Below, piece after piece: positions 24,825 through 25,325 of a stretch of 64,000 nt of DNA. The DNA lies in sequence record PP301343.1. One strand, given 5' to 3'. Origin of the DNA: Escherichia phage UE-M6. A program made the position numbers and the translations under genes. Numbering within the stretch: position 1 is the first letter of the stretch; every line of letters begins with the position of its first letter. The notes beneath the pieces were generated by a model that worked only from the letters and a program-made list of their open reading frames with translations, was not told the origin of the DNA and searched no databases.

Positions 24825-25325
24825 CTAAACTAACACCCAGTCTTCAGCTAATATATCTGATTGGGATGGGACCCAAGGCATAAACTGGTCATCAACAGTT
24901 TTGATTCCTAACCATGGACGAGGTTTCAATTCATCAGCAAGTCCTGGACGCTCTAAGCTACTGCTATTCCATTCTTGAGCAGCAACGTACTCAATGTACA
25001 TTCCTTTACCATTCCAGCCTTTACGGGCTAGTTTGAAGCCGGATTTGAGAAGCTCTACTGCATGACCAAAGGTGCAACCTTTTTCTACGTCATGGTACGC
25101 AGTTTCAAATGCAGATTTAGGTGACCAGCTAATATAGCCACGGAACTGAGGATGGTTAGACTTAGAGTCTGGGTACTCTACTAAGTAACCTTCTTCTAAT
25201 GGGTCTTCATTAGCAGGTACATCCCAGCCACGAAGTTTGCAGTATGTTTCTTTGTTCATTCGGAAACCATTTACACACTTGGTTCCGATATAATTGGTAA
25301 AATGGACTTTAATTTCTTCTGACAT
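24825..25325 (-). CDS. DUF2829-like protein (candidate Tad2-like anti-defence protein)
   Basis: Start taken at the internal Met (MSEEIK) with a GAGG RBS; C-terminal half carries KLARKGWNGKGMYIEY and WVPSQSDILAEDW, recalled as hallmarks of DUF2829. Confidence 0.45.
   Translation of the reverse strand: MSEEIKVHFTNYIGTKCVNGFRMNKETYCKLRGWDVPANEDPLEEGYLVEYPDSKSNHPQFRGYISWSPKSAFETAYHDVEKGCTFGHAVELLKSGFKLARKGWNGKGMYIEYVAAQEWNSSSLERPGLADELKPRPWLGIKTVDDQFMPWVPSQSDILAEDWVLV

Follow-up and report, generated by a model that had tools for sequence, protein, structure and literature searches.

A Tad2-type candidate sponge domain joined to an unnamed N-terminal domain in the primase-to-vRNAP hotspot of an N4-like coliphage

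The Tad2-type gene and its neighborhood

The gene studied here occupies positions 24825–25325 on the minus strand of a 64-kb stretch of Escherichia phage UE-M6 DNA (PP301343.1; hereafter the window, meaning all 64,000 nucleotides that were analyzed). Its open reading frame has 167 codons including the stop codon and hence encodes a protein of 166 amino acids, one fewer than originally counted. A Shine–Dalgarno-like GAGG (25331–25334, minus strand) can be read with a 5-nt spacer to the ATG at 25325; an alternative in-frame GTG start further upstream (25352), used in the record of phage PGN829.1, falls within a hairpin (25343–25363), and in close homologs of the 166-aa protein, phage N4 gp49 among them, the start corresponds to the ATG at 25325. 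All three peptide motifs cited in the original prediction are found in the product: YISWSPKSAFETAY at residues 64–77, KLARKGWNGKGMYIEY at residues 98–113, and WVPSQSDILAEDW at residues 151–163.

The gene had been described as lying beside the vRNAP gene, at the junction of the early and late modules. It is indeed the convergent neighbor of the vRNAP gene (14417–24787, plus strand; 3,456 aa), and the late (virion) side of the junction is as described; the early side is not, as the gene ends the middle (replication) module. The mechanical start of the vRNAP open reading frame is a TTG codon (translation MNRKHAMSTF...), and an internal methionine at residue 7 may be the true start. A bidirectional hairpin terminator with a 10-bp stem and T-runs on both strands (24793–24816) is common to the two convergent genes, and the hairpin at 25343–25363 (minus strand; 8-bp stem) separates the Tad2-type gene from the next gene upstream, which belongs to the Acb4 family. 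These two hairpins and a third at 26000–26031, all of them strong, bracket the Tad2 gene and a unit made up of the Acb4 gene plus a 61-aa open reading frame in a cassette-like manner. A scan for terminator-like sites found seven in 1.6 kb, against 1.2 expected in shuffled sequence.

The adjacent gene (25444–25824, minus strand; mechanical start at 25836, likely start M5 at 25824) encodes a product that matches Pfam PF13876 with 90.1 bits (cut-off 27) and shares 47% identity with N4 gp48, by which we assign it to the Acb4 family as the ortholog of N4 gp48. PF13876 has been identified as the CBASS sponge Acb4 (Tal et al.), and N4 gp48 is the experimentally characterized N4 Acb4, which sets off Panoptes and PanDA and has a Kd of 111 nM for c-di-AMP (PMC12657230). 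The Pfam name of PF13876, "N4 Gp49", clashes with RefSeq, where the number gp49 belongs to the DUF2829 protein.

The primase-to-vRNAP interval of N4-like phages has been described as a hotspot of gene acquisition and anti-signaling functions that contains Tad2, Tad3, Acb4, Sequestin, and the RuvC-like Bes1 (Fedorova et al. 2026; bioRxiv, June 2026). The gene order in the window is primase, an AAA_24/Sak4-like gene (30184–30936), SSB, a RuvC-like gene, Acb4, the Tad2-type gene, and vRNAP, so that the Tad2-type gene is located in this hotspot together with another signaling inhibitor. The upstream boundary of the hotspot is the DNA primase gene (30993–33146, minus strand), which is N4 gp43-like, carries a PriCT_1 domain, and is syntenic with N4 gp43–gp50. 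The RuvC-like gene (28792–29346, minus strand) is the ortholog of N4 gp46 (69% identity) and is annotated in PGN829.1 as a "RuvC-like Holliday junction resolvase"; as RuvC-domain Bes1 orthologs have been reported in most N4-like hotspots (Fedorova et al. 2026), it is by position a candidate equivalent of the Bes1 gene in Pseudomonas phage Ab09. The RuvC-like gene is followed by a 147-aa gene (28347–28790, minus strand) with no Pfam match, and the two genes stand at the positions of Ab09 Bes1 and Bes2, a likeness by position alone; Ab09 Bes1 and Bes2 are signaling-evasion genes.

Several further features of the interval and its surroundings were recorded. About 1.9 kb (26000–27900) lacks a convincing open reading frame, and the N4 annotation shows a comparable gap from gp47 to gp48. 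This region holds a tRNA-Ile (anticodon AAT; 26273–26348) and a second tRNA (26355–26430) whose anticodon ARAGORN left unassigned; a search of 25900–28400 against Rfam returned these two tRNAs only, with tmRNA-like matches below threshold. An HNH_3 endonuclease open reading frame (33143–33715, minus strand) between the primase and PD-(D/E)XK exonuclease genes is probably a homing endonuclease insertion.

The stretch from 24700 to 26100 shares 99.6–99.8% identity with Escherichia phages PBM-2/3, UE-S5a/b, UE-M3, and PGN829.1, whose records belong to Schitoviridae, Enquatrovirinae, Gamaleyavirus; the window is therefore from a Gamaleyavirus, a G7C-type N4-like coliphage. Copies of the 166-aa protein that are 99–100% identical occur in PBM-2/3, UE-S5a, and PGN829.1, PHROG 872 matches it over its full length (E 1.3e-65), and N4 gp49 (YP_950527, 160 aa) is 75% identical to it, the Tad2-type gene being the ortholog of N4 gp49.

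The C-terminal Tad2 domain

DUF2829 hallmarks had been recognized by eye in the C-terminal half of the protein, and this recognition holds far beyond chance. The Pfam search that had been proposed as a check returns a significant match to PF11195 ("Tad2-like") at residues 85–166, scoring 85.9 bits where the cut-off is 25 (E 2.8e-24) and spanning profile positions 2–73 of 73; from the Pfam, PDB, and Foldseek matches together, the domain is placed at residues 84–166 (24828–25076, minus strand). A phmmer search of the PDB with the 166-aa protein returned Tad2 proteins only, among them ModTad2 (9EIB/8V3E; E 1.7e-20), SPO1 Tad2 (8SME; 5e-13), AcrIIA7/HgmTad2 (9KZR, E 1.8e-11; 8KBI, E 5e-11), and SptTad2 (2.7e-9); AcrIIA7 is itself a DUF2829 protein. 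No second copy of the Tad2 domain, the N-terminal domain described below, Acb4, or Sequestin was found elsewhere in the 64-kb window.

The predicted fold agrees with these assignments. An AF2 model of the 166-aa protein built from 61 homologs (mean pLDDT 86) shows, in its C-terminal domain, a helix at residues 86–94 followed by strands at 99–101, 110–114, 138–142, 148–150, and 163–165, and the comparison with Tad2 that the original prediction had proposed gave a clear result: the model superposes on solved Tad2 structures, with 24 Tad2 chains matched by Foldseek in the PDB at E ≤ 2.6e-5 (target-normalized TM 0.56–0.83) and the next match at E 0.13.

The ligand pocket is likewise conserved. In SPO1 Tad2, 1''-3' gcADPR is contacted by W25, N26, I63, T65, D67, H71, W73, S76, T78, and D79 (Yirmiya et al.), the equivalents of which in the 166-aa protein are W104, N105, I141, T143, D145, M149, W151, S154, S156, and D157. 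Eight of these ten are identical (W104, N105, I141, T143, D145, W151, S154, and D157), one change is conservative (T78 to S156), and the other replaces the water-coordinating H71 with M149. Across the 61 full-length homologs that were aligned, the pocket W, N, T, W, S, and D never vary; in HgmTad2, W21/N22 and S90/T92/D93 are needed for gcADPR binding (Li et al.). The β2–β3 insertion (residues ~113–138) is short, like those of SPO1 Tad2 and ModTad2, and is both the least conserved and the least confidently modeled part of the protein (pLDDT 54 at residues 121–130); HgmTad2 binds cGG/cGAMP through an insertion of ~41 residues (Li et al.).

Pfam profile, PDB sequence search, predicted fold, and pocket conservation thus place residues ~85–166 in the Tad2 family, and every feature of the Tad2 sponge family that could be tested was found in residues ~84–166. 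The same four lines of evidence support the protein as a candidate sponge, as had been proposed. This reading is supported, yet it was already anticipated: RefSeq labels N4 gp49 and several of its orthologs "DUF2829 domain-containing protein", one ortholog record is already named "Thoeris anti-defense 2-like protein", and Tad2 is among the hotspot contents listed by Fedorova et al. A search of the accessible literature found no functional study of N4 gp49, the 166-aa protein, or any protein combining the N-terminal domain with Tad2. Neither the 166-aa protein nor its motifs appear in the accessible parts of the text and supplementary tables of Hadary et al., where, in the accessible part of Table S2, almost every Tad2 homolog consists of a single domain and the motifs of the N-terminal domain are absent from all of them.

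What the domain binds is harder to read from its letters. ModTad2, the closest solved relative, binds His-ADPR and, at a second pocket, cUMP/cCMP; other Tad2 proteins bind N7-cADPR, all three Thoeris signals, or cyclic dinucleotides, and, as far as the accessible parts of Hadary et al. report, not all of the DUF2829 proteins tested there inhibit a known system. The conserved canonical pocket suggests a TIR-derived ADP-ribose-type signal as the ligand, with finer specificity lying beyond what sequence can tell, and the ligand is the less certain because ModTad2 fails to inhibit type I Thoeris.

The N-terminal domain and its partners

The extra N-terminal region that the original prediction had pointed out is real, forming a separate and conserved domain at residues ~9–80 (25086–25301, minus strand; hereafter the N-domain) with the motifs IGTK, GYLVEY, and GYISWSPK..FE..Y. 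It belongs to no Pfam family (a Pfam search of the domain gave no match at E ≤ 1). Modeled alone, it reaches a pLDDT of 90.4 with the order β-β-α-β-β-α, and it has 18 invariant positions, compared with 15 in the Tad2 half. Its near-invariant residues, K16, R32, W34, E40, Y47, E50, Y51, N57, Y64, W67, K70, and Y77, are aromatic or charged.

The family defined by this domain is large. Its profile matches 2,992 clusters at 50% identity with E ≤ 1e-3, 1,401 of them with E ≤ 1e-10, and more than 5,000 clusters at 90% identity. Pfam annotation of the 150 best representatives found Sequestin (PF21825) in 45, Tad2 in 44, Acb4 in 16, and the Acb2/Tad1 hairpin domain in five. When three HMMs (Tad2, Sequestin, and Acb4) were run on the same 150 best representatives, the architectures comprised N-domain–Tad2 (40), N-domain–Sequestin (33), N-domain–Acb4 (8), and Acb4–N-domain–Sequestin (5), with further double and triple fusions also present, and 50 of the 150 had none of these three partners. 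Most of the partnerless proteins have 50–150 further residues to which no domain is assigned. Among the 120 clusters closest to the N-domain, 50 are without a Pfam domain, mostly stand-alone proteins of 73–105 aa. Tal et al. list, in their supplementary tables, at least 94 homologs of Sequestin and two of Lockin that contain the N-domain; in these tables the motifs occur only in such untested fusion homologs, and none of the candidates tested by Tal et al. includes the domain.

The N-domain family also reaches the RyR Tad of Pectobacterium phage CB1 (gp68). Residues 1–67 of CB1 gp68 align with the family in hhalign with a probability of 97.4% (E 1.5e-11), and in BFVD the N-domain model is matched by Foldseek to a RyR-domain protein of Yersinia phage TG1 (E 7e-5); sequence profile and predicted structure place the N-terminal part of RyR Tad in the N-domain family. 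The N-domain hence has partners from at least six sponge families, namely Tad2, Sequestin, Acb4, the Acb2/Tad1 hairpin domain, Lockin, and RyR-Tad, and it also occurs alone. The CB1 gp68 copy (residues 1–86), the sole one to have been tested, showed no anti-Thoeris-I activity and formed a strand-swapped dimer in the crystal (Fedorova et al. 2026). It is a divergent copy, as profile alignment finds it to be without R32, W34, E50, N57, K70, and Y77 of the consensus.

Three recently named families were considered and rejected. Lockin, which has been reported as absent from INPHARED, and Acb5, whose INPHARED homologs belong to phages of Streptomyces, Mycobacterium, Bacillus, and Haloarcula, do not suit a domain that occurs in phages of E. 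coli, Vibrio, and Klebsiella; TadIV-1 is helical and confined to Straboviridae.

Eight genomic contexts of stand-alone N-domain genes were sampled, and they are mixed, the sample being too small to decide on a role. In three different metagenomic phage contigs (loci L005, L006–L008, and L009–L011; gene at 3001–3222 in L005, L006, and L009), a 73-aa N-domain gene directly follows ribonucleotide reductase and precedes glutaredoxin or ThyX. Another follows dUTPase and precedes a convergent 4,450-aa gene. In a further locus (L018, 3001–3515), only 3 nt separate an N-domain gene of 75 aa from the stand-alone Acb4 gene of 94 aa that follows it, and this pair is a split form of the N-domain–Acb4 fusion. 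The other three contexts are uninformative.

An accessory, dimerizing module of sponge proteins is the best-supported reading of the N-domain, by analogy with the crystal dimer of CB1 gp68. It is also conceivable, at clearly less than even odds, that the N-domain is a counter-defense module itself, which might sequester or bind some signal or host factor, or might let sponges evade sponge-sensing guards such as Panoptes or PanDA. We keep this larger role in view because the domain is so often a stand-alone 73-aa protein and because the tested copy from CB1 gp68 is divergent and was assayed against type I Thoeris only. Whichever role applies, the recurrence of the N-domain with most known sponge families makes it usable as bait. 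Since it has no Pfam entry, searches for fusions limited to Pfam could not have used it, and the unassigned regions of partnerless N-domain proteins are consequently candidate new sponges.

Proposed role, alternatives, and known systems

We propose that the gene encodes a two-domain anti-defense protein that would be expressed as part of the replication-module transcription unit. If it follows the solved Tad2 proteins, the C-terminal domain would form a homotetramer in which two pockets lie between protomers that are not dimer partners, and these pockets would enclose a TIR-made, ADP-ribose-derived signal (3'cADPR/gcADPR and/or His-ADPR, possibly N7-cADPR), such that the Thoeris effector would never be switched on. 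The N-terminal domain of ~70 residues would most likely pair two chains via a swapped β-strand, as in the RyR-Tad crystal, and may serve sponges as an accessory module. Together with the adjacent Acb4 gene, which would cover cyclic dinucleotides, the Tad2-type gene would form a two-gene anti-signaling cassette in the primase-to-vRNAP hotspot. To this explanation as a whole, comprising the Tad2 tetramer sponge, the accessory N-domain, and the Acb4 cassette, we assign a probability of about 0.72. The loss of SPO1 Tad2 H71 in the 166-aa protein counts against it, and the N-terminal helices of the known Tad2 tetramer interlock, which bears on how an N-terminal dimerizing domain could be fitted.

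The Tad2 domain could instead act mainly on a signal outside Thoeris, with the canonical pocket secondary, the candidates being the Pycsar nucleotides cUMP/cCMP, held in an intra-dimer pocket like that of ModTad2, or a cyclic dinucleotide such as HgmTad2 binds. The second-pocket binding of cUMP/cCMP by ModTad2, the single gap with which the 166-aa protein aligns to it through the β2–β3 insertion, and the great diversity of specificities among Tad2 homologs all speak for such a role. Nevertheless, we regard it as unlikely: the residues of the canonical pocket do not vary within the ortholog family, a sign that this pocket is in use; the insertion is short like that of SPO1 Tad2, lacking the ~41 residues with which HgmTad2 binds cGG/cGAMP, and is poorly conserved and poorly modeled; and cyclic dinucleotides are already covered by the adjacent Acb4. 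A non-Thoeris sponge is best seen as a variant of the Thoeris-directed sponge proposed above.

More doubtful still is a main role set by the N-domain and outside anti-defense altogether, for instance as an accessory factor of nucleotide metabolism or replication, to which the Tad2 fold would be only a small-molecule-binding appendage. The ribonucleotide reductase genes upstream of stand-alone N-domain genes in three of the eight sampled contigs, with dUTPase in a fourth, weakly suggest such a metabolic role, and the position of the Tad2-type gene at the end of the replication module and the greater number of invariant positions in the N-domain (18, against 15) are in keeping with it. However, many kinds of accessory genes gather beside phage nucleotide-metabolism genes, the sample comprises eight contexts only, and one of these stand-alone copies has a stand-alone Acb4 gene just 3 nt downstream. 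Against a metabolic role stands above all the overwhelming association with sponges: at least one recognized sponge domain is present in 100 of the 150 family representatives in the HMM tally, to which Pfam adds five with the Acb2/Tad1 hairpin domain.

An AcrIIA7-type anti-CRISPR function, as some ortholog records say (the region is annotated "anti-CRISPR protein" in phage Mimir124) and as the PDB matches to AcrIIA7 might suggest, is very improbable, E. coli CRISPR systems being of type I-E and I-F and not of type II-A. Indeed, inhibition of Cas9 by AcrIIA7/HgmTad2 or other Tad2 homologs could not be reproduced in vitro or in vivo (Li et al.), which makes the anti-CRISPR label doubtful for the whole family.

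Read as a Tad2 homolog, the gene adds little, as the family is named in Pfam, the N4 ortholog is labeled, and Tad2 in the hotspot is published. What merits further work is the N-domain, which has no name and recurs together with six sponge families unrelated to one another. A second candidate sponge beside the studied Acb4 (gp48) is nonetheless offered by N4 gp49 and by its orthologs in Bas69 and Bas96 of the BASEL collection, and N4, Bas69, and Bas96 are model E. coli phages that are easily engineered, so that the TIR signal that an N4-like phage of enterobacteria has to neutralize can readily be sought.

Of the known systems closest to the protein, SPO1 Tad2 (gp34.65; PDB 8SME/8SMF/8SMG) has the same fold as the C-terminal 83 residues of the 166-aa protein and shares with it the motifs FGxAxxxLKxG (helix α1), GWNGKG, and W.PSQ.D.LAEDW, yet it is a single domain of 89 aa, whereas the 166-aa protein has an extra conserved domain of 70 aa before Tad2. 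ModTad2 (from a Myroides odoratus prophage; 8V3E, 9EIB) is the closest solved sequence, at about 45% identity, with a β2–β3 insertion of similar length and, as in the 166-aa protein, a serine at the position of SPO1 T78; the PSQSD of the 166-aa protein is intermediate between PSVSD in ModTad2 and PSQTD in SPO1 Tad2. ModTad2, too, differs in being single-domain.

The likeness to N4 gp49 is closer, as it has the same two domains over its full length and its gene holds the same position, after Acb4 (gp48) and last before the convergent vRNAP gene (gp50), the divergence between the two proteins falling mostly in the variable β2–β3 insertion. RyR Tad (CB1 gp68) resembles the 166-aa protein in that an N-domain is followed by a cADPR sponge domain, and its gene, like the Tad2-type gene, lies in the primase-to-vRNAP hotspot of an N4-like phage; its C-terminal sponge, however, is an all-helical RyR Repeat12-like domain and not Tad2. 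Finally, the fused sponges of N4-like hotspots, such as Acb4–Tad2 of Pasteurella phage Pm86, Tad2–Sequestin, and Acb4–Sequestin (Ab09 gp59), likewise join a small sponge domain to another small module in one chain; in those fusions both halves are proven sponges, whereas the partner in the 166-aa protein is an N-domain with no known ligand or activity.
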